From an uncultured Holophagales bacterium (GTDB taxonomy: Bacteria; Acidobacteriota; Thermoanaerobaculia; Multivoradales; UBA5704), in the NCBI GenBank assembly GCA_963844885.1, contig CAWJQA010000006.1, positions 608,366-672,365 on the forward strand: 64,000 nucleotides of DNA, written 5' to 3'. Within the stretch, counting starts at the first letter, position 1, and each line of letters begins with the position of its first letter. The translations under genes were made by a program, and so were the position numbers. Below, piece by piece: positions 4,270 to 60,712 of this stretch. Under the pieces are notes generated by a model. It was not told the DNA's origin and searched no databases. It saw only the letters and a program-made list of their open reading frames with translations.

Positions 4270-5754
4270 ATGAAGAAGATCCTCCTCACCGTCCTCGGCC
4301 TCGCCGTCCTCCTCCTGGCCGTGCTGGTCGGCCGCGCCTCGATGCTCGACTCCCGGCAGGTGAAGGCTGAGCCGGTGACCGACCTCAGTGTCGATGCCAA
4401 CGCGGTGGCTCAGCGGCTCGCCGGCGCCGTCCGCTTCCCCACCGTCTCCCATGAAAAGGGGGAAAACGTGGAGGCGCAGGCGTTCCTCGGGCTGCACGAG
4501 TACCTGCGGACGAGCTTCCCGCTGGTCCATCAGACCCTCCAGCGCGAGACGGTCGCGAACTACAGCCTTCTCTATACCTGGCCGGGGCGCAATCCGGAAC
4601 AGCCGCCGATCCTTCTCCTGTCCCACATGGACGTGGTGCCCGTCGAGCCCGGCACGGAAGGCAAATGGTCGCACCAGGCCTTCTCCGGCGACATCGCGGA
4701 CGGCTTCATCTGGGGCCGCGGCACCCTCGACGACAAGGTTTCGGTGATGGCGGTGCTCGAAAGCATCGAGCTGCTGCTTGCGCGCGGCTTCCAGCCGGAG
4801 CGGACGGTACTGCTCGCCTTCGGGCACGACGAGGAGGTCGGAGGCAATCAGGGTGCGGCGGCCATCGCGCGCCTGCTCGAAAGCCGCGGCGTGCATCCCG
4901 AGCTGATCATGGACGAAGGCGGCATCATCGCCGACGGCATGGTGCCCGGCATAAAGACGCCCGTGGCCCTGATCAGCACCGCCGAGAAAGGTTTCGTCAC
5001 GGTCGAGCTGACGGCGCGCTCCAAGGGTGGCCACTCGTCCATGCCGCCGGCCCACACCACCATCGGGATGGTGGCCGCCGCCGTGCAGAAACTCGAAGAG
5101 AACCAGATGCCGGCCCGCATCGACGGCGCGACGCGCCACTCTTTCGAATTCCTCGCGCCGGAGCTGCCACTCACCTTGCGCACCGTGATGGGCAACCTCT
5201 GGTTTTTCGGACCGCTTCTGAAAAGCAAGCTCACCGTGGAGCCGGCCTCCAACGCGCGCCTGCGCACCACCACGGCGGCGACGATCATCCGCGGAGGAGT
5301 CAAGGAAAACGTGCTGCCGAGCGAAGCGACGGCTTGGGTGAACTTCCGCATCCTGCCCGGAGACTCGGTCGCGTCGGTGCTGGAGCATGTGAAGGAGACG
5401 GTCGGCCCGGACATCGAAATGTCCGTTTCGGGTCCGATCCGGAACGAACCCTCGCCCGAAACCCCCGCGGACGGCGCCGGCTTCCGACTCCTCCAGACGA
5501 CGCTCTCCCAGGTCTTCCCCGGCATGCTCGCCGCGCCCAATCTCCTTTCCGGCGGGACGGACACGAAGCACTACCAGAAGCTGACGAGCAATGTTTTCCG
5601 CTTCATCCCGGTGAAAATCCAGGCCGAGGATCTGGAGCGCGTCCACGGCACCAACGAAAGGGTCGGAGTCGAAACCTACGCCGGAGCCGTGCGTTTCTAC
5701 GCCCAGTTCGTGAGGAACGCCGCGGGCGGGCCGGAAGGCGGGGGAAAGTTGTGA
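4270..5754 (+). CDS. M20 family metallopeptidase (carboxypeptidase/dipeptidase-like), secreted
   Basis: N-terminal signal/TM segment. M20 motifs LLSHMDVVPV, GRGTLDDK and FGHDEEVGG. 494-aa ORF. Confidence 0.9.
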   Translation: MKKILLTVLGLAVLLLAVLVGRASMLDSRQVKAEPVTDLSVDANAVAQRLAGAVRFPTVSHEKGENVEAQAFLGLHEYLRTSFPLVHQTLQRETVANYSLLYTWPGRNPEQPPILLLSHMDVVPVEPGTEGKWSHQAFSGDIADGFIWGRGTLDDKVSVMAVLESIELLLARGFQPERTVLLAFGHDEEVGGNQGAAAIARLLESRGVHPELIMDEGGIIADGMVPGIKTPVALISTAEKGFVTVELTARSKGGHSSMPPAHTTIGMVAAAVQKLEENQMPARIDGATRHSFEFLAPELPLTLRTVMGNLWFFGPLLKSKLTVEPASNARLRTTTAATIIRGGVKENVLPSEATAWVNFRILPGDSVASVLEHVKETVGPDIEMSVSGPIRNEPSPETPADGAGFRLLQTTLSQVFPGMLAAPNLLSGGTDTKHYQKLTSNVFRFIPVKIQAEDLERVHGTNERVGVETYAGAVRFYAQFVRNAAGGPEGGGKL

Positions 5755-6614
5755 ACGGCACGGAATTGGGGATGCCGCTCGCCTTCGATCCCGAGCGCGC
5801 CGACTTCACCGGAATCGCGAACCCACCCGATCCAGTCGGGGTCCACGTAGGACTCCGTCCCAACCACACCCAGAGGGATCGTGTTGACGTCGAAGTCGGA
5901 GCCGAGGGGCTTGCCCGCTGGCGAGAACCGCCGTGCCCGCAAAACCGCAGTCGGGGTGGGACCCGGCACTTCTCCGAGCCAGACGGCCAGGAAACCGCCA
6001 TCGGCGACAGCCAGGACGATCGGTTTTGAGCGGTCGATGGGCCGGCTGTTCAAACGCACCTCTGGCCCGATCCGCTGACCCGAGGACGAAAGGCGCCGGG
6101 CCACGATGCCATGCTTGCGGGGCAGCGCCCAGCCGGCCATGAACCCGTTGCCCCGGACAAGCCAGACCCATTCGGTGCCGGCCCCGCCCAGTCGAACCGG
6201 CTGGCCGTCAGGCGCGCCCTGCAGAGTCAGGTGCTGCCGATAGAAGGCCGTCGGCTTTCCACTGGGCGGCTCGTGCCAGAGCACGTCGAAACCCTTCAGC
6301 GCGGCCGTGACGGAGTCGATCGACGGATAGTGGTCCTCAAATCCGATCGTGGCCGGCCCTGCATCCTCGGGCGTGTCTCCGGCGGCGACGTAGCGATAAA
6401 AGACTCCTGCATGAGAATCGTACCCCTCGCCCCACGCGACCATGTAGGCACCGCCGGGCTGCACGGCCAGGAAGGGTTCCCTGGGGAACGTGGCGGCGCG
6501 CAGATCGACCTCCGGACCCAGCGGCACCAGTTGAGCTACAAGGCCGCGAGGGCCTGCGATGCCGATCCACGCTACGCTGACGAAAAAGCAGAGGGCGAGC
6601 CGTGTCCTGTTCAT
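5697..6614 (-). CDS. hypothetical secreted protein
   Basis: 305-aa ORF with an N-terminal signal peptide (MNRTRLALCFFVSVAWIGIAG). Its 3' end is convergent with the M20 gene and overlaps it. Confidence 0.5.
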   Translation of the reverse strand: MNRTRLALCFFVSVAWIGIAGPRGLVAQLVPLGPEVDLRAATFPREPFLAVQPGGAYMVAWGEGYDSHAGVFYRYVAAGDTPEDAGPATIGFEDHYPSIDSVTAALKGFDVLWHEPPSGKPTAFYRQHLTLQGAPDGQPVRLGGAGTEWVWLVRGNGFMAGWALPRKHGIVARRLSSSGQRIGPEVRLNSRPIDRSKPIVLAVADGGFLAVWLGEVPGPTPTAVLRARRFSPAGKPLGSDFDVNTIPLGVVGTESYVDPDWIGWVRDSGEVGALGIEGERHPQFRAVHNFPPPSGPPAAFLTNWA

Positions 6615-7085
6615 GAAGTAATTATACGCCCGGCGAAGGGGTCATCTGCTAGGCTTGGGCTCCGACATCGCTCCGGAGGCCGTCCACGAGTTGGGCCTGA
6701 GCGAGGTGGCGCGGATCACCGCGGAGATGACCAGACTGGCGCAGGCGCAGGGCTACAAGAACCTCGCCGCCTTTCGCGCCGCGATCAACAGCGAAGTTCC
6801 CAGACGGGCTTTCCTCCCAGCCTGCCTCGTGAGGGTAGGGTTCGCCCCAGCCGGCTAGGTCGCGCCGCGCTCAGTGGCAATCAACCTCTTCCAACATCTA
6901 CGGATTTCAGGAGGCGTTGCCCGGAGACGAGGTTCCCACGGAAGGTTGTGTTTCCTGCAGCTCGCGCGGCCTCCGGATTGCGCTGAAGGCTCCTGAATCC
7001 ACAGATTCGCCCCTTTCAGAAGTCTTCCCGCTCTACCAACCTCCCCTCCGCAGCTCAACTCTCCAGACGCTGACATAGTGCTGTG

Positions 7086-22778: not shown

Positions 22779-23765
22779 TCAAGAGGCTCCGCGCAGGTTC
22801 GCGGCTTCGAGCAGGGGCCGCCCGGGGAGTAGCAGCGGAGAAGCGCGCCCGGCCACGGAGCACCTGGCCAAGTGCCGCTGAGATCGCCGGCCATGGCTCG
22901 CATCCCGAAAGTCTTGACCCCGCAGTTCTTCTCCCGGATCGCGTCGCCCGGAGCTTCCGGCGCGGCGCCTGACCGGCTCGGCCGCGGAGCTTCCTGATTG
23001 GGAGCACCCCCTGGAACGATGCCGACAGGAACAGTTCCGATCTGTCCCTGGATGGATATCTCCGGCACTGCGGCCGCCGCGGCTGACGCGCTCGGAGACG
23101 TAGGTGAAGAGGTCGCCTACCGAGATCCGGCCGTCGTGGTTGAGATCGGCCTCGCCCGTAGACAGGCCATGCACCAGGAAGCTCGTGAAGATGGACGGAC
23201 CGGTGCCCCTCCTCCCCTCCCAGGCTTTCTGATCCAGGCTCGCCGCGGACAGGACGAAATGCCCGAAACCTTCTTCAAGCACACCTTCGCGCTTCAGGCC
23301 TTCGGCGAAATCGAGCACCGGCAGCGCGTCTCCCTTGGCTCCTCGCTTGAACAGGCCGCTGTTACAGCGTCGAGGACAGGATCTGCCGCTCGACCAGCTA
23401 TTCTCCACCTCGTTGTGCAGCCAGCGGGACCAGAGCGCAGTGGAGCTCGGAAGGTCCCCCTTCGTATCAGCCATGGCCAGGTAAAGTTGATCTCCCTTCC
23501 GGAGGCCGTGGCCGGAGTAATAGAGCAGCAACAGGTCTTTATCGATTCGGCCTCGGAAGAACAGCTCAATGGCCTCGTGGACCTCGTTGAGATCCTTGTC
23601 GATCAATATCCGGACGTCGTCGAAGCCGCCGATCTCGGGCTGCTTGAGCACTCGGGCCAGCTCTCGCACGTCGACGGCCGGCTTCTGGAGCCGGGTGACG
23701 CTGCCGTCCTTGTAGGTCCCGTTGCCGACGAGCAGCGCCAGTCGACGGCCCTCCCCCTTGCTCAT
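22779..23765 (-). CDS. caspase-like peptidase C14 domain protein (C-terminal about 80 aa probably out of frame)
   Basis: N-terminus LALLVGNGTYKDG ... DLLLLYYSGHGL (caspase His motif). Later segment FVLSAASLDQKAWEGRRGTGPSIFTSFLVHGLSTGEADLNHDGRISVGDLFTYV. The Cys region is atypical or possibly frameshifted. Confidence 0.6.
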   Translation of the reverse strand: MSKGEGRRLALLVGNGTYKDGSVTRLQKPAVDVRELARVLKQPEIGGFDDVRILIDKDLNEVHEAIELFFRGRIDKDLLLLYYSGHGLRKGDQLYLAMADTKGDLPSSTALWSRWLHNEVENSWSSGRSCPRRCNSGLFKRGAKGDALPVLDFAEGLKREGVLEEGFGHFVLSAASLDQKAWEGRRGTGPSIFTSFLVHGLSTGEADLNHDGRISVGDLFTYVSERVSRGGRSAGDIHPGTDRNCSCRHRSRGCSQSGSSAAEPVRRRAGSSGRRDPGEELRGQDFRDASHGRRSQRHLARCSVAGRASPLLLPGRPLLEAANLRGAS

Positions 23766-23772
23766 AGTAGCC

Positions 23773-24179
23773 TCAGCGCCGGCCGGTAGCCATGTCCGTC
23801 AGGCTCGTGATCAACTGATCCAACTGCTGCGTCGAGAGGGCGTCGGCGGCGTATTCGAGCGTGATCGATCGCTTCCCGTCGCTCACCTGCACCTTGAGCT
23901 TCTTCGCTTCGGCCTGTGAGTTGAGCCACGCCTGCAGGGTCTGGAGGAGCGTCGGCAGCACCGTGGGCAGGACGGCGACCGCCACCGCTCCGAGGGCCAG
24001 GGCGGCTTCGATCGACTTTCCCCCGGCGAACCGGCTCCCGGTGCGAGCGTCGCCACGGGCTCCGGAGACCCCCGCAGGTCATCGAGCAGAGAGGCCGAAA
24101 GGTCTGCGATCACCTCTCCCGGAGCACCTTCAGCCTCAACCTCAAGCGTCAAGACCATCTCGTCCTGTGGCGGCCCCAT
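23773..24179 (-). CDS. small hypothetical protein co-operonic with the caspase (two frames, 1 apparent frameshift)
   Basis: RBS AGGGAG then MGPPQDEMVLTLEVEAEGAPGEVIADLSASLLDDLRG... (frame a). It continues in another frame as ...IEAALALGAVAVAVLPTVLPTLLQTLQAWLNSQAEAKKLKVQVSDGKRSITLEYAADALSTQQLDQLITSL. It ends 8 nt before the caspase start. Confidence 0.4.
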
Positions 24180-25594: not shown

Positions 25595-27319
<1,725 letters not shown>

Positions 27320-27503
27320 CCGGCGATTCTAAGCTGAAACCCGGGCGCGAGTGGCCGCGCTGATGGAGGATCGAAGCCGAAGCGAGACTGGCGCGGCAGG
27401 AGAGAGGCCGGGGGTCTCGAATGCCCGGTGGGCAGCGGCCCACGGAAGGCTCTGATATCCTCTCTCTGTGCGATCCGCTAAGGAGGTCGCGCAGGAGAAT
27501 GTC

Positions 27504-27848
27504 ATGGCAATCACCTCTTCCGTCTCAGACGACCTGCTGGCGCAGATGGCACAGGTGATTGTGCGAGAAGTCGAGCCGGTGCGTATCATCCTGTTCGGCT
27601 CTCATGCCCGCGGCGAGGCCCGGCCAGACTCGGATGTCGACCTGTTGGTCATCGAGCGGGAGGATTTCGGCAAACAGCGCAGTCGGCGCCGTGAGGCGTC
27701 CTTGCTGTGGCGCGCCCTTGCCCGTTTCCCCGTACCCAAGGACATTGTGGTCTACAGTCAGGCGGAAGCCGCCGCGTGGAAAGACTCTCCCGGCCATCTC
27801 GTGGCTCAAGCGCTGCGGGAGGGGAGGGTGCTCTATGAGCGAAGATGA
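27504..27848 (+). CDS. mntA: nucleotidyltransferase-domain antitoxin (MntA, minimal nucleotidyltransferase)
   Basis: ILFGSHARGEARPDSDVDLLV NTase motif. It overlaps the downstream HEPN gene (ATGA overlap). Confidence 0.8.
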   Translation: MAITSSVSDDLLAQMAQVIVREVEPVRIILFGSHARGEARPDSDVDLLVIEREDFGKQRSRRREASLLWRALARFPVPKDIVVYSQAEAAAWKDSPGHLVAQALREGRVLYERR

Positions 27849-28221
27849 GCTGCCATCGAGACTGCTCGCCCTGGCCCGCAGAGATCTCCGCGCCGCGGAG
27901 CTTCTTCGGGATCAGCCGGAGGTGGGCGACGCCATCATCGGATTCCATGCTCAGCAGGCGGCGGAGAAAGCCCTCAAGGCTTGGCTGACGATTCTAGGAA
28001 TCGATTTCCCTCACACCCATGACCTCAGCCTGCTGATCCACAAGCTGGAGGAGGAAGGCGCCGAGGTGACGAGTTTGTGGGCGCTCCTCGACCTCAACCC
28101 GTTTGCCGTGCAGTTTCGTTATGAGATCTTGGATGACGAACCCCTGGATCATGGAGCAACTCTGGAGCAAGTGGAAGCGTTGTTGAATCAAGTAGAACGT
28201 CTCTGGGACTCCGCTTCCTGA
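27835..28221 (+). CDS. hepT: HEPN-domain toxin (HepT)
   Basis: 128 aa. MSEDELPSRLLALARRDLRAAELL and a conserved Arg/His within GFHAQQAAEKALKA. Classic MNT/HEPN pairing. Confidence 0.8.
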   Translation: MSEDELPSRLLALARRDLRAAELLRDQPEVGDAIIGFHAQQAAEKALKAWLTILGIDFPHTHDLSLLIHKLEEEGAEVTSLWALLDLNPFAVQFRYEILDDEPLDHGATLEQVEALLNQVERLWDSAS

Positions 28222-28427: not shown

Positions 28428-28766
28428 GGGTGCGCTGGACGCGCCGTGCCCTTGCAGACCTCACGCTCCGGCCGCGTCGTTCCCGAATTCGGTAGAGCCG
28501 ACATCCGGGAGGTCTTCCTCAGAAGCTACCGGATCGTCTATGCCGTCCATGACGACGGGATCGAGATCGTGACGGTCTTTGAAGGCCACCAGCTCTTTCC
28601 TTTGGATGTTGGGAAGCCCTCCTTCAACATAAGAAGACGGACCGTCGGGCGGCGCAAGACGCCTTTTCCAGAACCTCGGTCCTTGTCCTTCACCACCATT
28701 GCCTGCATCAAGAAGCTCGAATCTCATTTTTTGGCCTCGCTCCGTTCCGAGGAGGCTTCACTGTAG
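28424..28766 (+). pseudogene. RelE/ParE family toxin with apparent N-terminal frameshift
   Basis: ATG at 28424 gives MRVRWTRRALADLTL then a stop. The body continues in the frame of ORF 28446..28766 (PEFGRADIREVFLRSYRIVYAVHDDGIEIVTVFEGHQ). Confidence 0.5.
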
Positions 28767-29443
28767 GCTACAAATATCTCCACGTTGTAGAGGCGGAAAA
28801 ACTTGAGGTAGCGGTGGAGCATCCCGAAGCCAACCAGCAACGCCAGCAACGCCCACCGGAGCTGCTGGACGACATGGTTGGACCATCCTAGCCGCATCCA
28901 GTCGAGCACCGCGTTGACTGCAAAGAAGCCAGCGCCGGCAAGGCCGACGAAAGTCATGTTCCGGCAGAAGCCGTAGAGCTTCAGAAAGCCGTCCATACGC
29001 GCGTAAACATTGGGGTCCTGCTTGGCGATTGGGAACGCACACCAGAACAGGGACTCTCCCGTAACCTCTTCGTTGCGATCCGCAGTTGCACGCTCTCGAA
29101 CCTTCCTCTGCAGCCCAGCATCAAGCGGAGTGTAGTAGTCTTGGAGTAGGGTTTTTTTGAGAAACCTTCGCCAACCGAGGTTTCGCCCATTCATCAGGAT
29201 AACGGAAGGGCGGAAAAGCACGTAATGCACGAATCTTCGTTCGATAAGCCAGCCCGACGGTGCTGCCAGGATTTGGCCGACAATGTAAGCAGTGGCAATA
29301 GTAAGCGTCCCGCTAGCAACCGTCCACTGTACCCCGAGGACATAGTGCGTTGAAAAAATACTATCCCAGACTACGAGGGCCGACAGGCCGCTCGCAACGT
29401 AAGCAAACACGTCGTAGTCAGAAAACCGCGCGAGCTTGTCCAT
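28724..29443 (-). CDS. hypothetical 4-TM membrane protein, last gene of the E1/E2/JAB operon
   Basis: 239 aa. Two N-terminal and two C-terminal TM helices. Lower GC. Lies 11 nt downstream of the JAB gene. Confidence 0.55.
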   Translation of the reverse strand: MDKLARFSDYDVFAYVASGLSALVVWDSIFSTHYVLGVQWTVASGTLTIATAYIVGQILAAPSGWLIERRFVHYVLFRPSVILMNGRNLGWRRFLKKTLLQDYYTPLDAGLQRKVRERATADRNEEVTGESLFWCAFPIAKQDPNVYARMDGFLKLYGFCRNMTFVGLAGAGFFAVNAVLDWMRLGWSNHVVQQLRWALLALLVGFGMLHRYLKFFRLYNVEIFVAYSEASSERSEAKK

Positions 29444-29454
29444 GATGAACCTCC

Positions 29455-29910
29455 CTAGGCCTCCCTGTCGGCAACAGGTACTAAGGCCCGATCTTCTTGC
29501 TCAATCGAGGATGAGGGCGGCTCGGCAAGCAGTGCCCGATAGCCAACTGGCGTATGAATAAGTAGAACGGATGGCATGAGCTGAGCCAACGCGACAGCCG
29601 CAGCCGTCGCCCGGTCCAGAGACGATGGGCCCGATGGGCCCAGATGACTGTGCCAGGTTCCGAGGCAGTATAGGCTGTAACCACCACTCTCCGCGTAGGC
29701 CTTCAGTGTGGCGCACACACCTGCAGTGCCAAGAACGAACTCAGATGGGGAACGGCTACTATCTTCAGACGCTGGCAAGACATCCACGATGTAGAACGTT
29801 TGAGCCGCCTCCGAGAAACGACCGACCAAGATCCCTCCAGTCTCTACCGGTCGGCCAAGAGGCAACCTCGTCGGCCATCTTCCGATGTGCCCGACTGGCG
29901 ATCCGGACAC
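29455..29910 (-). CDS. JAB/MPN (JAMM) metallopeptidase domain protein
   Basis: JAMM motif E..(ETGGILVG)...GTWHSHLGPSGPSSLD (HxHx7Sx2D). It overlaps the E1 3' end. Confidence 0.75.
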   Translation of the reverse strand: MSGSPVGHIGRWPTRLPLGRPVETGGILVGRFSEAAQTFYIVDVLPASEDSSRSPSEFVLGTAGVCATLKAYAESGGYSLYCLGTWHSHLGPSGPSSLDRATAAAVALAQLMPSVLLIHTPVGYRALLAEPPSSSIEQEDRALVPVADREA

Positions 29911-31408
29911 TCCAAGATAGAGCTCCGTCTATAGCAACTGGCATCCACGGTTCCACTTCGTGCTGGCACCAGGATTGGCTTATGCCGTTCTCGTCCACGA
30001 GTCCGAGCAGTATACGACCCCCACCGGTTGGAAGTCCGCTAAGCTGGAGGGCTGCAAGCGCCTCGGCCATCGGCGCTGCTAGCATAGAGATCTGCGCGTC
30101 CGACATCACCATCGTTGCCGACCCGCAACCTTCCCCAATTGTCTGCCGCCGAAGGGCGACGCCCTCGTCTGCGAACACTAACTCGCGCAGCAACGCGTCC
30201 TCCCGCATCAGCGCGTAAGTCTCAGTTATCAGGTCGCCCGTGTTCGGATTGCGCACAGGTCCTTCGATCGAGAGCAGCCCGACCCGACCGTGGGCATACA
30301 ACGAGGTTTCAATCACGCGCGGGATTGTAACCCCCGCCGGAGTGGAAGCCAACGCCTCACGCGCGACGAGTGAGGCGGTCGAATTCACAACTGCCCAATT
30401 CTTCTTCGGCAGCATCCGCTTCGCACAATCCGCATCACGCGCAACCTTAACGATATCCTCGACATGTGGCTTGGCAATCTGGCCCAATCCTCTGATCGCC
30501 TCCGCAACCGCGAGTGCCTTCGAAGACATCCATGACATCTGCATGTATTCCTGGATTGGGACCAACCCATGCCTTGCCGCGTTGTGTGGGCTTAGGTTGC
30601 CTCGGTCGATAACGATGTGAGGCGCCCGGCCGGCACGTGCTAAGTGAAGAGCAATCTTCGACCCGAGACTTCCGGCTCCGACTTGAACCCACAGCGGTAC
30701 CTCTTCGACCGTGTCGCTCCCTGACATACTTCGCAGGAGTAATGCAGAGATTGTGTGACGATGTCCGGCGGGACGGACCCGCGTCTGGTCGCCCTGAGGA
30801 AACAAATGTGGAACACCAACCTCGACTATATATGGGCAGAGTTCCAGAGTGCTATTACTGCCAATCAGATGACATGGCCGCCGAGCGCAGAGAATGATAG
30901 CGAGCGGGAATAAATTTCCTCCCTCTTTGTCTGCCAAGCATCGTTCGAGCCAGTTTAATGCAGAGCGTAGCGGTTTAGCACAGCCATAACCGGTAGCTCG
31001 CTCCATTAGACTGCGGACATCGGTCACGGTTTCCGGCTCATATCGATCCGCGACTATCAACCGACCTGCGGGTGTTTTGCCCGGCCAGGCGAAGATTGCC
31101 AGAGCCCGGCCGAGCGCCGTATCAGGAGCGCGCTCCAATGGGCGCTGCCGAAACGACTCGCCAACGGTGTTCTTGTTCAGTTTTATATGTTCACGACCAA
31201 CCTCTCCATAGAAGGCGATTCCTTCGGCCGCGTCAACCTGATATCGGCGGTAGTCGAATCTGAAGAAAGAATAACCTTCCTCACGCGATACCAATGAGTA
31301 AAGATGTGACGCATCGGCGACCACTAAATCAACCAAACTATCCGCCGCACTGGTTCCCAGCCCTGCTGCCGGTCGATAAGCCGCCCCAGTGCGGCATTCT
31401 CCAGCCAA
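29765..31408 (-). CDS. E1-like ThiF/MoeB family adenylyltransferase with about 200-aa N-terminal extension
   Basis: Rossmann motif VQVGAGSLGSKIALHLARAGRAPHIVIDRGNLSPHNAARH. 547 aa. The 5' end overlaps the E2-like gene in another frame. The real start may be internal or fused. Confidence 0.8.
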   Translation of the reverse strand: MAGECRTGAAYRPAAGLGTSAADSLVDLVVADASHLYSLVSREEGYSFFRFDYRRYQVDAAEGIAFYGEVGREHIKLNKNTVGESFRQRPLERAPDTALGRALAIFAWPGKTPAGRLIVADRYEPETVTDVRSLMERATGYGCAKPLRSALNWLERCLADKEGGNLFPLAIILCARRPCHLIGSNSTLELCPYIVEVGVPHLFPQGDQTRVRPAGHRHTISALLLRSMSGSDTVEEVPLWVQVGAGSLGSKIALHLARAGRAPHIVIDRGNLSPHNAARHGLVPIQEYMQMSWMSSKALAVAEAIRGLGQIAKPHVEDIVKVARDADCAKRMLPKKNWAVVNSTASLVAREALASTPAGVTIPRVIETSLYAHGRVGLLSIEGPVRNPNTGDLITETYALMREDALLRELVFADEGVALRRQTIGEGCGSATMVMSDAQISMLAAPMAEALAALQLSGLPTGGGRILLGLVDENGISQSWCQHEVEPWMPVAIDGALSWSVRIASRAHRKMADEVASWPTGRDWRDLGRSFLGGGSNVLHRGCLASV

Positions 31409-31797
31409 GCTACTAGTTGGTTCAGAACCCCAACGAGACCCTGTTCCTGCAGCAGTTCTGCGAGGCTTCCTTCATAGATGCATGGCACTGGACGCTCATT
31501 GGGAGCGCCAGGCATGACATGCGCCAACGCGCGATCGAAATCCGCGCGCAAACGAATCATTGGCGGCTTCAGTGGGAACGCGTCAGGAAAAATGAGCTCG
31601 ACTGGCTCGACTGCACGCACGCCACTGGGACTGACCCCATCAGCCATCCACGAGTTTGGTAGCCCGAGTCGTAGCGCCACGTCAACAATCGTTATCCCCG
31701 TCTCCGAATTGGCTTCCGTAAGAAAGACACCCTCGACAGCCGGGTGAGCGGCTATGAGACGCAACGCCCTTCGGATCGGCCCGGTTGTTCGGTGCAT
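31324..31797 (-). CDS. UBC-fold E2-like protein
   Basis: Aligns by eye to the UBC core: RRALRLIAAHP ... FPLKPPMIRLRADF ... HVMPGAPNERPVPCIYEG (FP..PP.v.f...HPN...G.iC pattern, catalytic Cys) ... LVGVLNQLVAWL. Confidence 0.65.
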   Translation of the reverse strand: MHRTTGPIRRALRLIAAHPAVEGVFLTEANSETGITIVDVALRLGLPNSWMADGVSPSGVRAVEPVELIFPDAFPLKPPMIRLRADFDRALAHVMPGAPNERPVPCIYEGSLAELLQEQGLVGVLNQLVAWLENAALGRLIDRQQGWEPVRRIVWLI

Positions 31798-31815
31798 TTC
31801 TACTCTGGATTCTGC

Positions 31816-32970
31816 TCAGCCGTGGGCGAGCGGATGGCGACCGACAGCACTGCCTACTACGATAGAGGCTCTGGTCAAGACCTTTGTCAGAAGGCGAGGC
31901 CCATATTGTCCAATCTCAAACTCCACTATGTCCGGATTGCGTTCGGGTTCGCCGACGCATTTCAAGGAGCCCCCAGCATCCTTGGCAATCTGTTCGTACT
32001 CGCGCTTCGCCCGGATGCAGGGTGGATCGTTGTCGTCGTCTTTGATCGATTTACTGCTCGCCACGAGCACCGCACCCTTGCGGGTCTGCGACAGAGCACT
32101 ACGGGCTTCCTCTGAGACCTCGGCGTCCTCGCCCTTTTCACTCCAACTGTCATAGGAGAGGGAATGCCAAGAGCAGTGGTGTGGCGTCTGCAGGATGTCG
32201 TAGCTAAGCCAGTCCGGGCGAGCAGAATGCCGCTGCCAGAGCCGCTCCCAGATCGCAACTTCGGCATCGCCGCCAGTAAGGAACCGCGCGACGTCCGCCT
32301 GGCTGTCGCCCGCGAGCGAGAAGTTGAGGATCGTGCTGCAGTGGTTTTTCGACCGCACCTCTTCCTCATCCTCGTTGCCCTTCGGCTGGGGCGCCAACAG
32401 TCGTGCCGATATTGATGAGTCGTACTGGCCATTAACGCTGGAGAACACTTGGTCGACTTTGATGAGAATTGCCGTCAGATCATCGGTCTTTCCATCTTCA
32501 TCCTCACCGAGGATCAGAATGCGGTCTCCCTCCGACACGATACCGAAGCTATCGCGGAACCGCTTCACTCGGCGACGCGCCTCTGAACTGAACGCGGCCG
32601 CATCATCACAGAGGACATGGTTGCGCGCCGCGCGGCGAAAAACCATAGGTGAAGACCAGATCTCACGGACGAAGATCTTATCGGTGATCTTTGACCAATC
32701 TTCCGGCGGGCCGAAGTGGAAGTGCTTCTTCAAGCCTCTGCTGTGGTCCTCGTCAGGATGACTCAAGAGGAAGGCGTCCACATAGAGCCGGCCCTCTCCG
32801 TCGCGCTTCAACCGGTCTCGCAACATCTTGGCCACATCGGGCGTATCATCGTCAGGGTCATCCGCGGCGGCACGAATGTTGACGTCAATCAGGATTCTGC
32901 GCCCGCTCTCCAACTCGAGGAGCGTCATATCGCCATTGCAGACGGGGTAAAACGTGATCTTGGCTGGCAT
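31816..32970 (-). CDS. metallo-beta-lactamase-fold hydrolase, first gene of the E1/E2/JAB operon
   Basis: MBL motif FLLSHPDEDHSRGL, the N-terminal beta-strand pattern ITFYPVCNGDMTLLEL..RILIDVN, and later conserved His/Asp. 384 aa. Confidence 0.7.
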   Translation of the reverse strand: MPAKITFYPVCNGDMTLLELESGRRILIDVNIRAAADDPDDDTPDVAKMLRDRLKRDGEGRLYVDAFLLSHPDEDHSRGLKKHFHFGPPEDWSKITDKIFVREIWSSPMVFRRAARNHVLCDDAAAFSSEARRRVKRFRDSFGIVSEGDRILILGEDEDGKTDDLTAILIKVDQVFSSVNGQYDSSISARLLAPQPKGNEDEEEVRSKNHCSTILNFSLAGDSQADVARFLTGGDAEVAIWERLWQRHSARPDWLSYDILQTPHHCSWHSLSYDSWSEKGEDAEVSEEARSALSQTRKGAVLVASSKSIKDDDNDPPCIRAKREYEQIAKDAGGSLKCVGEPERNPDIVEFEIGQYGPRLLTKVLTRASIVVGSAVGRHPLAHG

Positions 32971-33149
32971 GTCCTTAACCTCCTTGGAGGGGATGCCCAG
33001 GGCGGGCTTCTACGCCTCATTTTTACCCTACCCTAGCAGCCCGTGTCAAGATGCTGTGGTGGCGAGCCGGTGAACCCCTAGAAGTTGGGGTCCTCACCCA
33101 ATGCTGCCTACCTGAGCCTCGGCCTCTGCGCATCGGGTAGACACTCTCG

Positions 33150-33300
33150 TTCCAGGTGCTGAGCGCCATCCTCAACCTGGCGGACCGGCTCCCCGCGCAG
33201 CGCCTCTTCGCCGCCAGCGCCGTCATGGTCGCCGCTGCCAATGCCGCCATCCCCCTCCTGGACGTCAAACCGGGCGTCTCCCTCGCCGATGTCGGTAGCC
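33150..33300. repeat. duplicated MFS-transporter gene fragment (copy 1); it continues at 33689-33790 after a roughly 390-bp vapBC insertion
   Basis: Near-identical (about 90%) to 34542-34650, and 33689-33790 matches 34685-34800. Both copies end ...GGATGGCGGGAGGCC(A/G)G(A/G)GGTAATCACCAGGACGGTGG. Confidence 0.7.
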
Positions 33301-33337
33301 GGCCCGGCTGCAGAGCAGGCGGTGGTATTATTCCCGG

Positions 33338-33589
33338 ATGAGAACGACTGTTACCCTCGATGACGACGTATACGAAGCGGCACAGTCGCTGGCGCAGGCG
33401 ACGGGGAAGAAGCTCGGCTGTGTGTTGTCCGAGATGGCACGGCACGCAATACAGCCGTCCAGACGAGGATCGAAGCAGGCGGCGCCGCAAGGGATTTCTC
33501 GTTTTCCCGTCTTCGAGGTGCCAAGAGGCTCCCGGGTGATTCCGGCCTCGCGGATCCAAAAGGCCCTGGACGAGGACGGCATTGTCTGA
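33338..33589 (+). CDS. vapB: VapB-like RHH antitoxin
   Basis: MRTTVTLDDDVYEAAQSLAQATGKKLGCVLSEMARHA ribbon-helix-helix pattern. Confidence 0.6.
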   Translation: MRTTVTLDDDVYEAAQSLAQATGKKLGCVLSEMARHAIQPSRRGSKQAAPQGISRFPVFEVPRGSRVIPASRIQKALDEDGIV

Positions 33590-33788
33590 GAACCGGCCGC
33601 TTCTGCTGGACGTCAATGCCCTCTTGGCGCTGGCTTGGCCGACTGCTGACCCTGTTCACGATCCGGATGATCCGATCGGCGGGGAGCGCGCCTTCATGAC
33701 TCTGGCGCTGGGGCCGATCTTCGGGATCGTCAGCATGCTCCGCCTGCGGCGTCTTCCCGCGGAGCGGATGGCGGGAGGCCAGGGGTAA
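33582..33788 (+). pseudogene. vapC: PIN-domain VapC toxin, truncated after about 26 aa by junction with the MFS-fragment repeat
   Basis: MSENRPLLLDVNALLALAW (PIN N-terminus). The ORF then reads through the duplicated sequence FMTLALGPIFGIVSMLRLRRLP. Confidence 0.45.
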
Positions 33789-34366
33789 TCACCAGGACGG
33801 TGGGACCGAGGGCGACCCTCCCTGTTCCCACCCAAGGCAGGCTAGCTCTCCACCCGCAGATCCACGTACGGCGGCGACGCGTAACCCGACCGACTCCATC
33901 CGGTAGCGCGCCGAACGCGTAACCTGCCAAGCCCTCGCCTCGGCGGCTCAATGACCTGGTGACGCCCTAAAAAATACCTTGAGACCGGCCCGCTCAGCGG
34001 CGAGCGAAGCGAGTCCGCTGCCTCGCCGTAGTGTCAGGCAAGGGTGGAGATTGCACGGAACGACCTGAGTTGCGCTCTCTCTCCTGGAGATACTTGACGA
34101 GCGCCTCAGGGTCATTGCCACACTCGCGGAATAGTTCCTCGCGATGGCGGTGCAGCTCTTCGACGATGGAGTCGTGGCTAAGGTAAAGGCGCGGCATTCC
34201 AGAAAATCTACCATGGCCAGGCACCGGATGCACTCTCTGGGCCCAGCTTGGACAAGTCGCGGTATAGTCCCGCAAAGGGACCGCTGGCGAACTTCCTGCG
34301 CAGACTCTACGACGCCGCTCTCCCCCATCGTATCGGGAAGACGCCCTCGTTCCAGGCCGCGATCCC

Positions 34367-34783
34367 ATGACCGGCAAGTGGCGGACCGTCACCCTCCTCG
34401 CTCTCGCGGAGCTCCTGGCCATGTCGGTCTGGTTCTCCGCCTCGGCGGTCGTGCCGCAGCTCACGTCCGAGTGGGGGCTCTCGGGCGCCCAGCAGTCGTG
34501 GCTGACCATGAGCGTCCAGGTCGGGTTCGTGACTGGAGCGCTGCTGAGCGCCATCCTCAACCTGGCGGACCGGCTCCCGGCTCAGCGCCTCTTCGCCACC
34601 AGCGCCGTCATGGCCGCCGCTGCCAATGCCGCCATCCCCCCTGCTGGACGCCGGACCGAGCGTCTCCCTGGGACTCCGCTTCCCTTCATGGCTCTGGCGC
34701 TGGGGCCGGTCTTCGGGATCGTCAGCATGCTCCGCCTGCGGCGTCTTCCCGAAGCGGAGCGGATGGCGGGAGGCCGGAGGTAA
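34367..34783 (+). pseudogene. MFS transporter N-terminal fragment (copy 2)
   Basis: TM1-3-like MTGKWRTVTLLALAELLAMSVWFSASAVVPQL...LSAILNLADRLPAQRLF, then stop at 138 aa. Duplicate of 33150-33300/33689-33790. Confidence 0.4.
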
Positions 34784-35109
34784 TCACCAGGACGGTGGCA
34801 ACGCCAGGGGCGAGGTGTTGCTGCTGCTGGGCTCGATTTGGGGGAGCTCCGACACCTCGGGGCCTCTGGTTCAACCGCACCCAGGAGAGCGCCGGCAGGC
34901 CGGCTTTTCGGTAGGGCAAGAGCTTCCTTCCGGACCGGGCAGTGCTCCATAATCATCGGCTGAGGACCATCGACGTGAAGCTTTCGATCCCGAACACCGG
35001 CGGCACGATGGATAAGACCTTTTACTTCAATACGCTCTACCCTCTCCAGGATCGGGTCCTCCAACTCCTGAGCGGTCTGGACACAGGCTTCTACCTCTCG
35101 GGCGGGACG

Positions 35110-35700
35110 GCCGCCTCCGACGCGTAAACCAGGCTGCCGAATGCCTTCGGCGAGGCGCCGGACGCGTAAACCCGGCCGGTTTATCCATCCGGCGGCGTGC
35201 CCGACGCCTAAACCAGGCTGCCGAACGCCTTCGGCGAGACGCCGGACGCGTAAACCAGCCGGTTTACCCATCCGGCGGCGTACCCGACGCGTAAACCAGA
35301 CTGCCGGATGCCTTCGGCGAGCCGCTGGACGCGTAACCCGGCCGGTTTATCCATCCGGCGGCGTGCCCGACGCGTAAACCAGGCTGCCGAATGCCTTCGG
35401 CGAGCCGCCGGACGCGTAACCCGGCCGGTTTATCCATCCGGCGGCGTGCCCGACGCGTAAACCAGGCTGCCGAATGCCTTCGGCGAGCCGCTGGACGCGT
35501 AACCCGGCCGGTTTATCCATCCGGCGGCGTGCCCGACGCGTAAACCAGGCTGCCGAATGCCTTCGGCGAGACGCCGGACGCGTATCCCGGCCGGTTTATC
35601 CATCCGGCGGCGTGCCCGACGCGTAAACCAGACTGCCGAATGCCTTCGGTGAGCCGCCGGACGCATCAATCCTGGCGGTTTATCACGCTCCCGGCGGCGG
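35110..35700. repeat. tandem array of about 6.5 copies of an 87-bp unit (each unit made of two related ~43-bp half-units with short palindromes)
   Basis: Unit GACGCGTAAACCAGGCTGCCGAATGCCTTCGGCGAGCCGCCGGACGCGTAACCCGGCCGGTTTATCCATCCGGCGGCGTGCCC recurs with few substitutions starting about 35119, 35205, 35291, 35378, 35466, 35553 and 35615. Internal stems GGCCGG...CCGGCC. Confidence 0.85.
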
Positions 35701-35778
35701 CGTGGCGAAGAAGAAGGCCACGGACGCCACGGCCGCGATGGCGATCAGCTCCAGCGGATTCTCGAAGACGAGGTTCAT
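35683..35778 (-). CDS. possible 31-aa hydrophobic mini-protein
   Basis: AGGAGG RBS then MNLVFENPLELIAIAAVASVAFFFATPPPGA*. The 3' end runs into the last repeat unit. Confidence 0.2.
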   Translation of the reverse strand: MNLVFENPLELIAIAAVASVAFFFATPPPGA

Positions 35779-35814: not shown

Positions 35815-36438
35815 CTAACTCGTCCCGCTCCAGAAGCTCGCGAGGCTCCGCGTGCCGATGAACTTGTCGCGGTCGCAGCGGCCGATGCCGGCGACCTGGT
35901 GCGGCTCGGGCCCGACGGCGCCGTCCGTGTATTGCCACAGCGTCCACGTCGGCCAGTTCGGCGGCACGACCGGCGTCGGCCCGTACTGAGCCAGCCAGAG
36001 CCAGCATTTGGCGAGCACGGGATCGGTCTTCGTTCCCAGGAGATCCTTGATGTAATGCCCGGAGTAGAGCCCGGGAAACCTGCCGGTGATCGCTTGAATG
36101 TGGGTCACGAAAGCCCGCGCCTCTTCCAGCGTCATGGAAGGGCCGGTCAGGTTGGGCTCGAAATCCAGCACCATCAAGGTACCGGGATCTTTGCCGACCA
36201 CGCGCAGAAAGTTCTCCGCCTGCCGCACTCCATCGCTTCCCGTGCCGAAGTGATAGGCGCCCCAGAGCAGCCCCGCCTCCTTGGCCTTGGCCCGATTGAT
36301 CCCATAGGTTGGATCGACGTTGGATTGACCCTGGCTGGCCTTCTGGATCACGCCGAGGATGCCGTCGCCCTTGGCCTTCTTCAGATCCACGTCGCCGTTG
36401 TGATGCGAGAGATCCACCACCGCGTTGATGATCGCCAC
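35815..36438 (-). CDS. GH25 family lysozyme/muramidase
   Basis: RBS GAAAGGAG then MAIINAVVDLSHHNGDVDLKKAKGDGILGVIQKASQG...GLLWGAYHF (GH25 catalytic region). 207 aa. Confidence 0.8.
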   Translation of the reverse strand: MAIINAVVDLSHHNGDVDLKKAKGDGILGVIQKASQGQSNVDPTYGINRAKAKEAGLLWGAYHFGTGSDGVRQAENFLRVVGKDPGTLMVLDFEPNLTGPSMTLEEARAFVTHIQAITGRFPGLYSGHYIKDLLGTKTDPVLAKCWLWLAQYGPTPVVPPNWPTWTLWQYTDGAVGPEPHQVAGIGRCDRDKFIGTRSLASFWSGTS

Positions 36439-59372: not shown

Positions 59373-60694
59373 GCCGCTCCCTTACGGATAGATCTTGTAG
59401 AGCAGCCGTGGGTACGGGATGGTCTCGCGCAAGTGACTGACGCCGCACATCCAGGCCACGAACCGCTCGACGCCCATGCCGAAGCCGCAGTGCGGATACC
59501 AGCCGTACTTGCGGACGTCCAGATACCACTGGAACGCCTCGACGGGGAGGTTGTGCTCCGGATGCGGTCGAGCAGCAGGTCGTGGTCGTGAATCCTCTGG
59601 CTGCCGCCGATGATCTCGCCGTAGCCCTCGGGCGCGATGAGGTCGAGGCCGAGCACGGTCTCGCGGCCCGGCTCGCTGTCCGGCGACGGCTGCATGTAGA
59701 ACGCCTTGAAGGCCGCCGGGAAGTGGGTGATCATCACCGGCCGGTCGTACTGGCTGGCCAGGATGGTCTCCTCGTCGCCGCCGAAGTCGTCCCCCCACTG
59801 GATGGGGTTGCCCTCCCGGTTGAGGATCTCGACCGCCTGGGTGTAGGTGATGCGCGGGAAGGGCGGCACCACGGCCTCGAGCTTCGCGGTGTCGCGCTCC
59901 AGCACCTTGAGCTCTTCCTTGGCGCGGTCGAGCACCCGGCCCACCAGGGAGCCGACGAACTCCTCGGCGAGCCGGCAGAGGCCTTCGAACTCCAGGAAGG
60001 CCACTTCGGGCTCGACCATCCAGAACTCCATGAGGTGGCGCCGGGTCTTCGACTTCTCGGCGCGGAAGGTGGGGCCGAAGCAGTAGACCTTGCCGAGCGC
60101 CGCGGCGGCGGGCTCCAGGTAGAGCTGGCCGGACTGGCTCAAGAAGGCCTTGTCGCCGAAGTAGTCGGTCTCGAACAGGGTCGAGGTCCCTTCGCAGGCG
60201 GCGGGAGTGAGGATCGGCGAGTCGATCAGGGTGAAGTCGCGCTCGTAGAAGAAGTCGCGGATGGCCTGCTCGACCTCGCTGCGCACCCGCAGGGCCGAGC
60301 GCTGCTTGCTGGAGCGCAGCCAGAGGTGCCGGTGCTCCATCAGGAACGCGGTGCCGTGCTCCTTCGGGGTGATCGGGTAGTCCTGGGTCAGGTACGACAC
60401 CTTGAAATCGGTGAGCTGGACCTCGACGCCGATCGGCGAGCGCTTGTCTTCCTTGACCTTGCCGGCCAGCCAGATGGTGGACTCCTGGGTGGCGCGCTCG
60501 ATGTCGGCCCAGGCGGCTTCGGAGACGTCGTTGCGGCCGGCCACGGCCTGCACGCCGCCGCCGCCGCACCTCACCTGGAGGAAGGCGATCTTGCCGCTCG
60601 ACCGCTTGTTGTCGAGCCACCCGTTGAGGACGACATCCTCGCCGATGTGGCGCTTCAGCTCACGGACGGAAGAGACGGGGGTCGGTTCGCTCAT
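59373..60694 (-). CDS. asnS: asparagine--tRNA ligase (class IIb) with one apparent frameshift near 59545-59560
   Basis: [39 protein letters not shown] and [10 protein letters not shown] in frame 1. The C-terminus [52 protein letters not shown] is in the frame of ORF 59382..60620. The junction atccgg|agcac looks like a 1-nt homopolymer indel. Confidence 0.85.
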
Positions 60695-60712
60695 AAGACG
60701 CGGGATTGTAGC

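Follow-up and report, generated by a model that had tools for sequence, protein, structure and literature searches.

The 64-kb stretch of DNA analysed here (the window) contains, at 28-33 kb, a block of low GC content (0.57-0.59, compared with 0.65-0.71 in the flanks by windowed GC analysis), the minus strand of which carries five co-directional open reading frames (ORFs) listed as MBL, E2, E1, JAB and TM. Both the low-GC island and the five ORFs had been described in an earlier note on this DNA and were recovered as described, the ORFs lying at the following positions:

31816-32970, minus strand: MBL ORF, an intact 384-aa 6A-MBL MBL-fold enzyme (NF058524, homology to L001, fold match)
31324-31797, minus strand: E2 ORF
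29765-31408, minus strand: E1 ORF
29455-29910, minus strand: JAB ORF
28724-29443, minus strand: TM ORF, a 4-TM all-helical protein of 239 aa from an uncharacterised family (homology to L001, AF2)

The closest relative of the locus, designated L001, was used as the reference for tblastn and for MAFFT DNA alignments, while the NCBIfam models NF058524 (6A-MBL_enzyme) and NF058523 (6A-MBL_cap2_3) were applied with cutoffs of 220 and 320 bits, respectively. The E2, E1 and JAB domains are encoded directly downstream of the MBL gene on the same strand, in a gene order which is also that of L001 and 67 other loci. A promoter and terminator scan was uninformative.

The three middle ORFs were found to belong to one gene, cap2_3, which is made up as follows:

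29455-31797, minus strand: cap2_3, an E2-E1-JAB triple-module gene spread over three frames by two single-base indels (tblastn, NF058523)
31324-31797, minus strand: E2 (UBC-like) segment with H93/C106; its ORF is closed by a stop codon that the frameshift produces
~31343, minus strand: frameshift site 1, a 1-nt deletion compared with relatives (GTGCGGCG-GAT; MAFFT against L001)
29849-31342, minus strand: linker and E1 adenylation segment, with the GAGSLGSK P-loop at 374-381 and Cys558 in GEGCGS (repaired numbering)
~29848, minus strand: frameshift site 2, a 1-nt insertion compared with relatives (CCGACCGGTAGAG vs CCAACT-GTTGAG; MAFFT against L001)
29455-29849, minus strand: JAB/JAMM peptidase segment, with E652, H716xH718, S725 and D728 (repaired numbering)

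When the 788-aa L001 protein was searched against the window using tblastn, amino acids 12-156, 157-652 and 646-768 aligned in frames -2, -1 and -2, respectively (67.7% identity for the linker and E1 segment, against amino acids 157-652), and the E2, E1 and JAB ORFs matched positions 3-100, 100-563 and 563-665 of NF058523 consecutively. As deposited, the three ORFs score 107.9, 312.6 and 120.1 bits against this model, each below the cutoff of 320; with both indels repaired (the simplest repair at site 1 being GGG for the GG of the window) a stop-free protein of 780 amino acids is obtained which scores 574.9 bits and covers positions 4-665 of 665. Sites 1 and 2 are the only length differences from L001 within cap2_3 that are not multiples of three in the MAFFT DNA alignment. 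Homologues of cap2_3 are nearly all 760-790 amino acids long and contain Prok-E2_A, ThiF and Prok-JAB domains. Of 80 genome loci, 73 are not cut by a contig end, and in 67 of these a full-length cap2_3 in one frame comes after the MBL gene. That E2, E1 and JAB look like separate genes is due to two 1-nt indels within one gene, most likely as an artefact, and, read literally, the deposited sequence encodes no functional Cap2_3.

A genuinely split and translationally coupled E2/E1/JAB operon, which together with the MBL and TM genes would be a new architecture of five genes, is very unlikely. Gene callers run on the deposited assembly do yield a separate E1 protein of 420 amino acids (P0001), and separate E1, E2 and JAB genes do occur in other bacterial systems, e.g. 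Bil; however, the ORFs begin and end within stretches of the fused profile that are conserved and contiguous, with homology running across the frame changes, each break is of exactly one base, the E1 and JAB ORFs would require TTG/GTG starts within out-of-frame sequence, and no relative has such a split, frameshifted loci from metagenome-assembled genomes (MAGs) aside. The overlaps between E2 and E1 and between E1 and JAB had been taken in the earlier note as a sign of fusion or frameshift; a frameshifted Cap2-like fusion is indeed present, while the overlaps themselves are single-base changes of frame and not gene overlaps. What had been seen as an N-terminal extension of about 200 amino acids on the E1 protein is the stretch that normally links E2 and E1 in the fused protein.

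The domain identities proposed from the letters were borne out by profile and fold searches. The E2 ORF matches Pfam Prok-E2_A at 84.7 bits, with H93, P105 and C106 invariant in the family alignment; the P-loop of the E1 segment matches ThiF and CBASS Cap2, with the invariant residues kept; and the JAB segment, whose invariant residues are also kept, matches Pfam Prok-JAB at 28.9 bits and PADLOC JAB models at up to 47 bits. Repaired Cap2_3 retains H93/C106, G374-K381, C558, E652, H716, H718, S725 and D728, and in an alignment of 42 sequences most of the catalytic residues are invariant, with D728 nearly so. That the ThiF-like gene might instead encode a MoeB/ThiF enzyme of sulfur transfer in molybdopterin or thiamine biosynthesis, which the earlier note had named as the reading that would overturn its own, has a negligible probability: the P-loop does match the ThiF family weakly, but at 17-20 bits against cutoffs of 152-275, no ThiS/MoaD or cofactor-pathway gene was found in the neighbourhood, and the repaired gene matches the 6A-MBL cap2_3 model at equivalog level.

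The MBL protein is a ComEC-type metallo-hydrolase. It scores 425 bits against NF058524 (cutoff 220) with positions 1-346 of 346 covered, is 80.5% identical to the MBL protein of L001, carries the motifs NGD (12-14), SHPDEDH (70-76), GGD (233-235) and PHHCS (263-267), and keeps every residue that is invariant in an alignment of 66 sequences. In a fold search with the AF2 model (pLDDT 85.5) the best PDB match was the ComEC beta-lactamase-like domain 9ic4 (E=1.4e-11), and some homologues are named 'ComEC/Rec2 family' by NCBI. An SHxDxDH-type motif is common to the 6A MBL and the C-terminal MBL nuclease domain of ComEC/Rec2, its best structural match; the identity is, however, only 12%, and the 6A MBL lacks the competence channel and the OB domain and carries a family-specific C-terminal tail:

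31819-31881, minus strand: MBL C-terminal tail, residues 364-384, ending ...GRHPLAHG; presumed E1 adenylation/conjugation substrate

A motif L[AGPS]HG with terminal glycine was found to be the C-terminal end of 119 of 120 MBL homologues (tail consensus ...QPLxHG), G377, H383 and G384 are invariant in the 66 sequences, and the tail is predicted to be disordered (pLDDT <50 in the AF2 model). It is true, as had been remarked, that none of the five proteins ends in GG; the MBL protein nevertheless ends in a family-invariant ...HG. The suggestion in the earlier note that the conjugated moiety is the C-terminus of a partner protein is likely to be right, and sequence conservation of the tail together with analogy to related systems indicates that the MBL protein itself is probably that moiety, as has also been proposed earlier in the literature. 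No small ubiquitin-like protein (Ubl) ending in GG had been seen in this DNA, and none of the small island ORFs was found to end in G or GG with coding character or to match a Ubl family; no Ubl would be needed because the MBL protein itself is probably conjugated, given the ...QPLxHG ending in 119 of 120 homologues and the predicted disorder of the tail. For work on 6A-MBL, mutagenesis could obviously be aimed at the near-invariant ...QPLxHG of the C-terminus, which is predicted to be disordered.

The locus is a copy of the described 6A-MBL antiphage system, which is already known, and is not a new arrangement. Both components of that system are present, with order and strand unchanged, the MBL protein scores above the equivalog cutoff and has the conserved C-terminal glycine, and the E2-E1-JAB segments together span the complete cap2_3 model and keep their catalytic residues; it differs in that cap2_3 is, as sequenced, interrupted by the two 1-nt indels and in that a TM gene is appended. 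The general reading of a horizontally acquired, defence-type prokaryotic E2/E1/JAB cassette holds, with the NCBIfam 6A-MBL models matched. The MBL companion, on the other hand, had wrongly been called non-standard: a triple-module E2-E1-JAB protein beside a specialised metallo-beta-lactamase is row 6a of Table 1 in Iyer 2006 (PMC1779556), a paper which that note itself had cited. Citing papers name 6A-MBL as an antiphage system and report that it protects P. aeruginosa from jumbo phages. The appropriate annotation is a 6A-MBL defence system in which cap2_3 is one gene, rather than a new cassette of five ubiquitination genes.

6A-MBL was reportedly both named and tested in 2024, and type II CBASS is said to pair Cap2 (an E2-E1 fusion) and Cap3 (JAB) with a CD-NTase. 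The locus has in common with type II CBASS a homologous E2-E1 fusion and JAB, the absence of a free Ubl and a partner enzyme whose C-terminus is, here probably, the conjugated part; in contrast, the partner here is an MBL-fold hydrolase and not a nucleotide cyclase, without a cyclic-nucleotide effector, and the JAB domain is fused to the E2-E1 protein. No CD-NTase or cyclic-nucleotide effector was found among the window ORFs by profile searches, the Cap3 model gave 14.3 bits (cutoff 200) and Cap2 in the PDB gave E=0.4. Type II CBASS corresponds to type 6b in the scheme of Iyer (PMC1779556). Bil (BilABCD) and Bub are likewise bacterial E1/E2/JAB-type conjugation systems found in defence contexts; in both, the Ubl is a free protein and E1 and E2 are encoded separately, whereas the present locus has no Ubl, and Bub lacks the catalytic cysteines which are retained here.

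The system consists of two genes, one for a ComEC-type MBL-fold hydrolase and one for a Cap2_3 protein with E2, E1 and JAB in that order. Because its E2-E1 and JAB modules are related to those of type II CBASS, a mechanism can be drawn by analogy with that system. The E1 domain would adenylate the C-terminal glycine of the MBL protein, which would be handed through thioesters on the E1 and E2 cysteines (Cys558 and Cys106) and then ligated to a target, so that the hydrolase, probably a nuclease or phosphodiesterase, might be activated or localised; the JAB domain would reverse or limit the conjugation. Conjugation of the MBL protein is here inferred from sequence conservation and from this analogy.

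The 4-TM protein proposed in the earlier note is 75% identical to a 238-aa gene product of L001, and four transmembrane helices are consistent with hydropathy and with the AF2 model (pLDDT 94.1). Its family comprises 196 clusters and has neither a Pfam match nor a name; there was no match among PADLOC models, and no PDB entry matched the AF2 model significantly in a fold search, the best being ExbB (E=0.2, TM-score ~0.3). A relationship to ExbB/MotA is unsupported by these values. The protein had been counted as a companion gene of the cassette, which it does not define: elsewhere it lies in an independent cassette with its own second MBL-fold gene (MBL2), one of ~300 amino acids that follows the TM gene, usually with a 4-nt overlap. 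MBL2 follows the TM gene in 6 of the 7 stand-alone loci looked up, the neighbour in the seventh being another, convergent MBL-fold gene, and TM and MBL2 occur together without 6A-MBL in L084, L085, L086, L088, L089 and L090. The MBL2 protein of relatives matches PADLOC PDC-M48B over its full length (166-207 bits), this being the MBL-fold component B of the PADLOC candidate PDC-M48, of which no mention was found in the searchable literature. MBL2 was not found in the 64-kb window by tblastn and HMM searches, and homology to L001 ends at ~28720, where one short ORF was noted:

28686-28727, minus strand: possible 14-codon stub of a lost MBL2 (MRFELLDAGNGGEG vs MMIDIFDVGHGGCS; 5/14 identities)

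As in relatives, the start codon of this ORF and the stop codon of the TM gene overlap in ATGA, and the 5/14 identities and the conserved ATGA junction weakly suggest a remnant of a lost MBL2.

The TM gene belongs, as its first member, to a separate TM and MBL2 (PDC-M48B-like) cassette which is sometimes appended to 6A-MBL (the TM gene is found in ~10% of 6A-MBL loci) and of which the second gene is absent here. To call it a mere neighbour may understate its role, given at least four other lineages (L005, L034, L041 and L064) in which the TM gene comes after cap2_3 in the same direction and MBL2 is lacking. These loci and the window may represent a 6A-MBL subtype with MBL, cap2_3 and TM, in which the TM protein could be, e.g., an anchor, target or membrane effector. 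It is possible, if rather doubtful, that the 4-TM protein is a functionally coupled partner of ComEC-type MBL hydrolases in general, that is of MBL2 in the stand-alone cassettes and of the 6A MBL in the subtype; were this so, there would be a 6A-MBL variant with three genes, and the coupling would offer an initial hint of what the MBL protein is conjugated to. The recurrent linkage to the 4-TM protein, to a second MBL-fold gene or to both amounts to an accessory module which could bear on the target or localisation of the conjugated enzyme.

The 6A-MBL copy sits on a horizontally acquired low-GC block of ~4.4 kb within an island rich in toxin-antitoxin (TA) modules. TA modules had been said to flank the island together with duplicated MFS fragments; the former do lie on both sides (MNT/HEPN and a ParE fragment on one, VapB on the other), while the MFS fragments (33118-33808 and 34318-34803) are both on the same side. 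The idea that the two MFS copies are direct repeats flanking the island was rejected on this ground. The upstream edge of the block was placed as follows:

32971-33099, minus strand: upstream region common with the relative's operon; upstream edge of the transferred block (L001 DNA alignment, which reaches ~33099 with small gaps; GC step)

Taken as a whole, it is highly probable that the locus is a horizontally acquired copy of 6A-MBL with two indels which most likely are assembly errors and with a TM gene belonging to a separate cassette. The indels are most likely assembly (sequencing) errors in short G/C runs, because an AsnRS-like gene and an amidase gene in the same window show the same type of indel: the former, for a class II aminoacyl-tRNA synthetase (aaRS), is split at CGGGAG->CGGAG, and the latter is split twice. 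Two homologous loci from other MAGs (L006 and L030) are likewise frameshifted.

That the mutations are real, with cap2_3 a pseudogene in a decaying, non-functional 6A-MBL and the neighbouring MBL2 deleted, is unlikely, if far from negligible. The closest relatives have a fourth gene which is absent here, homology stops abruptly at ~28720 beside a truncated ParE gene, the surroundings are full of gene fragments (including the MFS pieces and a truncated VapC) and truncated 6A-MBL loci are known elsewhere (L042, L048 and L051). Against decay, a repair of two bases leaves cap2_3 without stops, further indels or lost invariant residues, the single-base indels in the aaRS and amidase genes of the same 64 kb point to assembly, and a TM gene without MBL2 recurs in intact loci. 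Phase-variable defence genes exist in other systems, and a regulatory device, either programmed ribosomal frameshifting or phase variation switching the defence on and off, might be favoured because of them and of the position of both sites in short G/C runs; it is extremely unlikely, since the runs are of just 2-3 bases, two compensating shifts ~1.5 kb apart would both be required, unrelated housekeeping genes carry the same type of indel and the sites are absent in relatives. Assembly error being the preferred reading, overlapping frame-shifted "genes" in this assembly are a warning of indel errors, of which the window has about one per 13 kb of coding DNA, and its other oddities merit equal suspicion. 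One such candidate, EACC1 and caspase at 23.5-24.1 kb, was rejected as a further frameshift: a stop is followed there by an ATG, and the two are separate genes.

Five minus-strand open reading frames (ORFs), proposed in an earlier note to form an E2/E1/JAB conjugation cassette of defence type, were recovered by an ORF scan at the same coordinates:

31816-32970, minus strand, MBL-fold ORF (384 aa)
31324-31797, minus strand, E2-like ORF (157 aa)
29765-31408, minus strand, E1-like ORF (547 aa counted from TTG)
29455-29910, minus strand, JAB ORF (151 aa counted from GTG)
28724-29443, minus strand, hydrophobic transmembrane (TM) protein ORF (239 aa)

The ORFs lie in a low-GC island, as had been proposed (GC of 0.57-0.59 at 28-33 kb of the window compared to 0.65-0.71 on both sides). 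Using Pfam, the conjugation ORFs matched Prok-E2_A (84.7 bits), the ThiF P-loop and Prok-JAB, while PADLOC gave CBASS-type E1-E2 and JAB matches, none better than weak. With NCBIfam, the MBL protein scored 425 bits (cutoff 220) against NF058524, "anti-phage 6A-MBL system MBL-fold protein", and the E2, E1 and JAB ORFs were found to occupy positions 3-100, 100-563 and 563-665, end to end, of NF058523 ("6A-MBL system cap2_3 protein"), a single model of 665 positions. These profile matches settle the predicted identity of the locus as 6A-MBL, a two-gene antiphage system of an MBL-fold enzyme and a fused E2-E1-JAB protein, cap2_3. Iyer et al. 2006 (PMC1779556) describe this pair as operon type 6a and call the E2+E1 and JAB proteins of type 6b closely related; type 6b corresponds to present-day type II CBASS. 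Later papers describe 6A-MBL as an antiphage system with experimental support, credited to van den Berg et al. 2024, and count it among the jumbo-phage defences of P. aeruginosa. The broad interpretation of the note was right, while the arrangement it took to be unusual belongs to a system already described and curated (NF058523, NF058524). Either errors in the sequence or lesions of very recent date, together with an adjoining, partly deleted cassette, account for the odd features of the locus. Its residual value is modest, lying in the invariant HG tail of MBL and the accessory linkage of TM to a second MBL-fold gene.

When the E1 ORF was used as a protein query, approximately 500 relatives were found, nearly all of 760-790 aa and carrying Prok-E2_A, ThiF and Prok-JAB together. 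The closest relative, a 788-aa protein from a Pseudomonadota MAG (locus L001), aligned to the window in frame -2 (aa 12-156), frame -1 (aa 157-652) and again frame -2 (aa 646-768). DNA alignment to L001 revealed exactly one 1-nt deletion at approximately 31343 (GTGCGGCG-GAT; site 1) and exactly one 1-nt insertion at approximately 29848 (CCGACCGGTAGAG compared to CCAACT-GTTGAG in L001; site 2), with all remaining length differences in the coding regions being multiples of three. The E2/E1 and E1/JAB overlaps are therefore a by-product of frame changes in one gene, and the "200-aa N-terminal extension" ascribed to E1 is a frame change plus the normal E2-E1 linker. With one G inserted and one deleted, the gene encoded a 780-aa protein with zero internal stops, which scored 574.9 bits (cutoff 320) over positions 4-665 of NF058523. 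In the family alignment the repaired protein keeps E2 residues H93/C106, the E1 GxGxxG/K loop, C558 in GEGCGS and the JAMM residues E652, H716, H718, S725 and D728, and no family-invariant residue was lost.

A survey was made of 80 loci from species-representative genomes, 73 of which were not cut by a contig end. In 67 of these 73, a full-length cap2_3 in one frame came after MBL. In two MAG loci of the survey cap2_3 was frameshifted (three frameshifts in L006, 8200-10430, and one in L030, 8229-10443); that a gene of this length is called in pieces may thus be an annotation artefact that recurs among MAG assemblies.

A GC3 frame plot of the window flagged further same-strand frame switches. 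The amidase at 25598-27328 (minus strand) fell into three frame segments, namely a signal peptide, Amidase 2-143 and Amidase 163-377 (Pfam), implying that it has two single-base indels, one near 26965 and the other near 26415. In an AsnRS-like class II aminoacyl-tRNA synthetase at 59385-60712 (minus strand), tRNA-synt_2 positions 5-253 and 261-306 lay in different frames (Pfam), the break near 59545 being most simply accounted for by loss of a G from CGGGAG, a signature shared with site 1 of cap2_3. The split synthetase suggests that the assembly carries systematic single-base indels. Genuine recent pseudogenisation of cap2_3 is rather improbable. Since five single-base indels fall in three unrelated genes of one 64-kb window, one of them a normally indispensable housekeeping enzyme, and cap2_3 is undamaged apart from its two, the window favours assembly error, which is the probable cause of the cap2_3 indels. 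Programmed frameshifting is very unlikely, as is an operon that is split by nature.

The absence of a free Ubl with a Gly-Gly end was borne out by a small-ORF scan of the island, in which no small ORF was coding-like or ended in Gly-Gly. When the 120 best MBL homologues were compared (67-82% identity), 119 had L[AGPS]HG as their C-terminus, and G377, H383 and G384 were invariant in the family alignment. An AlphaFold model was confident for residues 1-363 (mean pLDDT 85.5, pTM 0.88), with residues 364-384 predicted to be disordered. This apparently flexible tail with its invariant terminal glycine looks like an E1 substrate, paralleling the CD-NTase tail used by Cap2 in type II CBASS. MBL would itself be the conjugated moiety in the proposed mechanism, whose conjugation steps, like the target and the substrate of MBL, are putative. 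The metal-binding motifs of MBL are intact in the family alignment, and the best PDB match of its globular part was the ComEC beta-lactamase-like nuclease domain (9ic4, E=1.4e-11), followed by phosphodiesterases, with RNase Z/J-type enzymes alongside.

The TM protein, with four predicted TM helices around a soluble helical insert, belongs to a small, unnamed family of 196 clusters; it had no match in Pfam, NCBIfam or PADLOC and no significant relative among PDB structures. The closest relatives have a four-gene operon, in which MBL, cap2_3 and TM are joined by a gene for a second MBL-fold protein of 294 aa (MBL2). MBL2 scored 166-207 bits against PADLOC PDC-M48B, and a conserved C-terminal Gly was not found in it. 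Among seven neighbourhoods of divergent TM homologues, none adjoined a 6A-MBL pair; an MBL2-type gene came next in six, usually with a 4-nt overlap, and the seventh had a different MBL-fold gene as convergent neighbour. TM and MBL2 therefore make up a two-gene cassette in its own right. It stands alone, with an MBL2 of approximately 300 aa, in L084, L085, L086, L088, L089 and L090 (TM at approximately 5000-6700 in each), and is apparently uncharacterised in the searchable literature. With TIR/Thoeris-like genes, RM, ArdA and a prophage terminase among their contents, the stand-alone TM neighbourhoods have a make-up typical of defence islands and of mobile elements. MBL2 is absent from the window, where homology to the relatives stops at approximately 28720, beside a truncated ParE gene; a stub of 14 codons that keeps the conserved ATGA junction is the one possible remnant. 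At least four other lineages (L005, L034, L041, L064; TM identity 31-71%) have TM immediately after cap2_3 and lack MBL2, and roughly 10-15% of loci have TM or MBL2 no more than 7 kb away from 6A-MBL, so TM and ComEC-type MBL enzymes may be functionally linked.

The following features surround the island:

23496-24063, minus strand, EACC1 (effector-associated constant component) then a caspase/Peptidase_C14 gene, approximately 5 kb from the island
27468-28221, plus strand, MNT (NTP_transf_2)/HEPN toxin-antitoxin (TA) pair, on one side
28446-28600, plus strand, C-terminal half alone of a ParE toxin (profile 40-87), after the MNT/HEPN pair
33118-33808 and 34318-34803, two copies of a 5' fragment from an MFS transporter gene, 92-97% identical in blocks
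33338-33589, vapB antitoxin, on the other side
35086-35747, tandem array of an 83-nt unit, approximately 6-8 copies, core 93-96% identical, on the VapB side
35815-36438, minus strand, GH25 lysozyme/muramidase (Glyco_hydro_25, 111.9 bits, Pfam), adjoining the array

TA modules flank the island on both sides as described, while both MFS copies, also placed in the flanks, lie on one side. The first copy is interrupted by vapB and a truncated PIN-like ORF, and the duplication looks like a rearrangement scar. The ParE reading frame continues into the island junction. The L001 operon neighbours an integrase, HipA and a Trb/VirB conjugation module; the TA and mobile-element surroundings of both loci therefore support the proposed horizontal acquisition, into a defence/TA island. 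The repeat array contains repeated small ORFs on both strands, and the GH25 gene may be phage-derived. A frameshift between EACC1 and the caspase gene was ruled out, as a stop is followed by ATG and the genes are separate; the pair represents a further module of conflict-system type.
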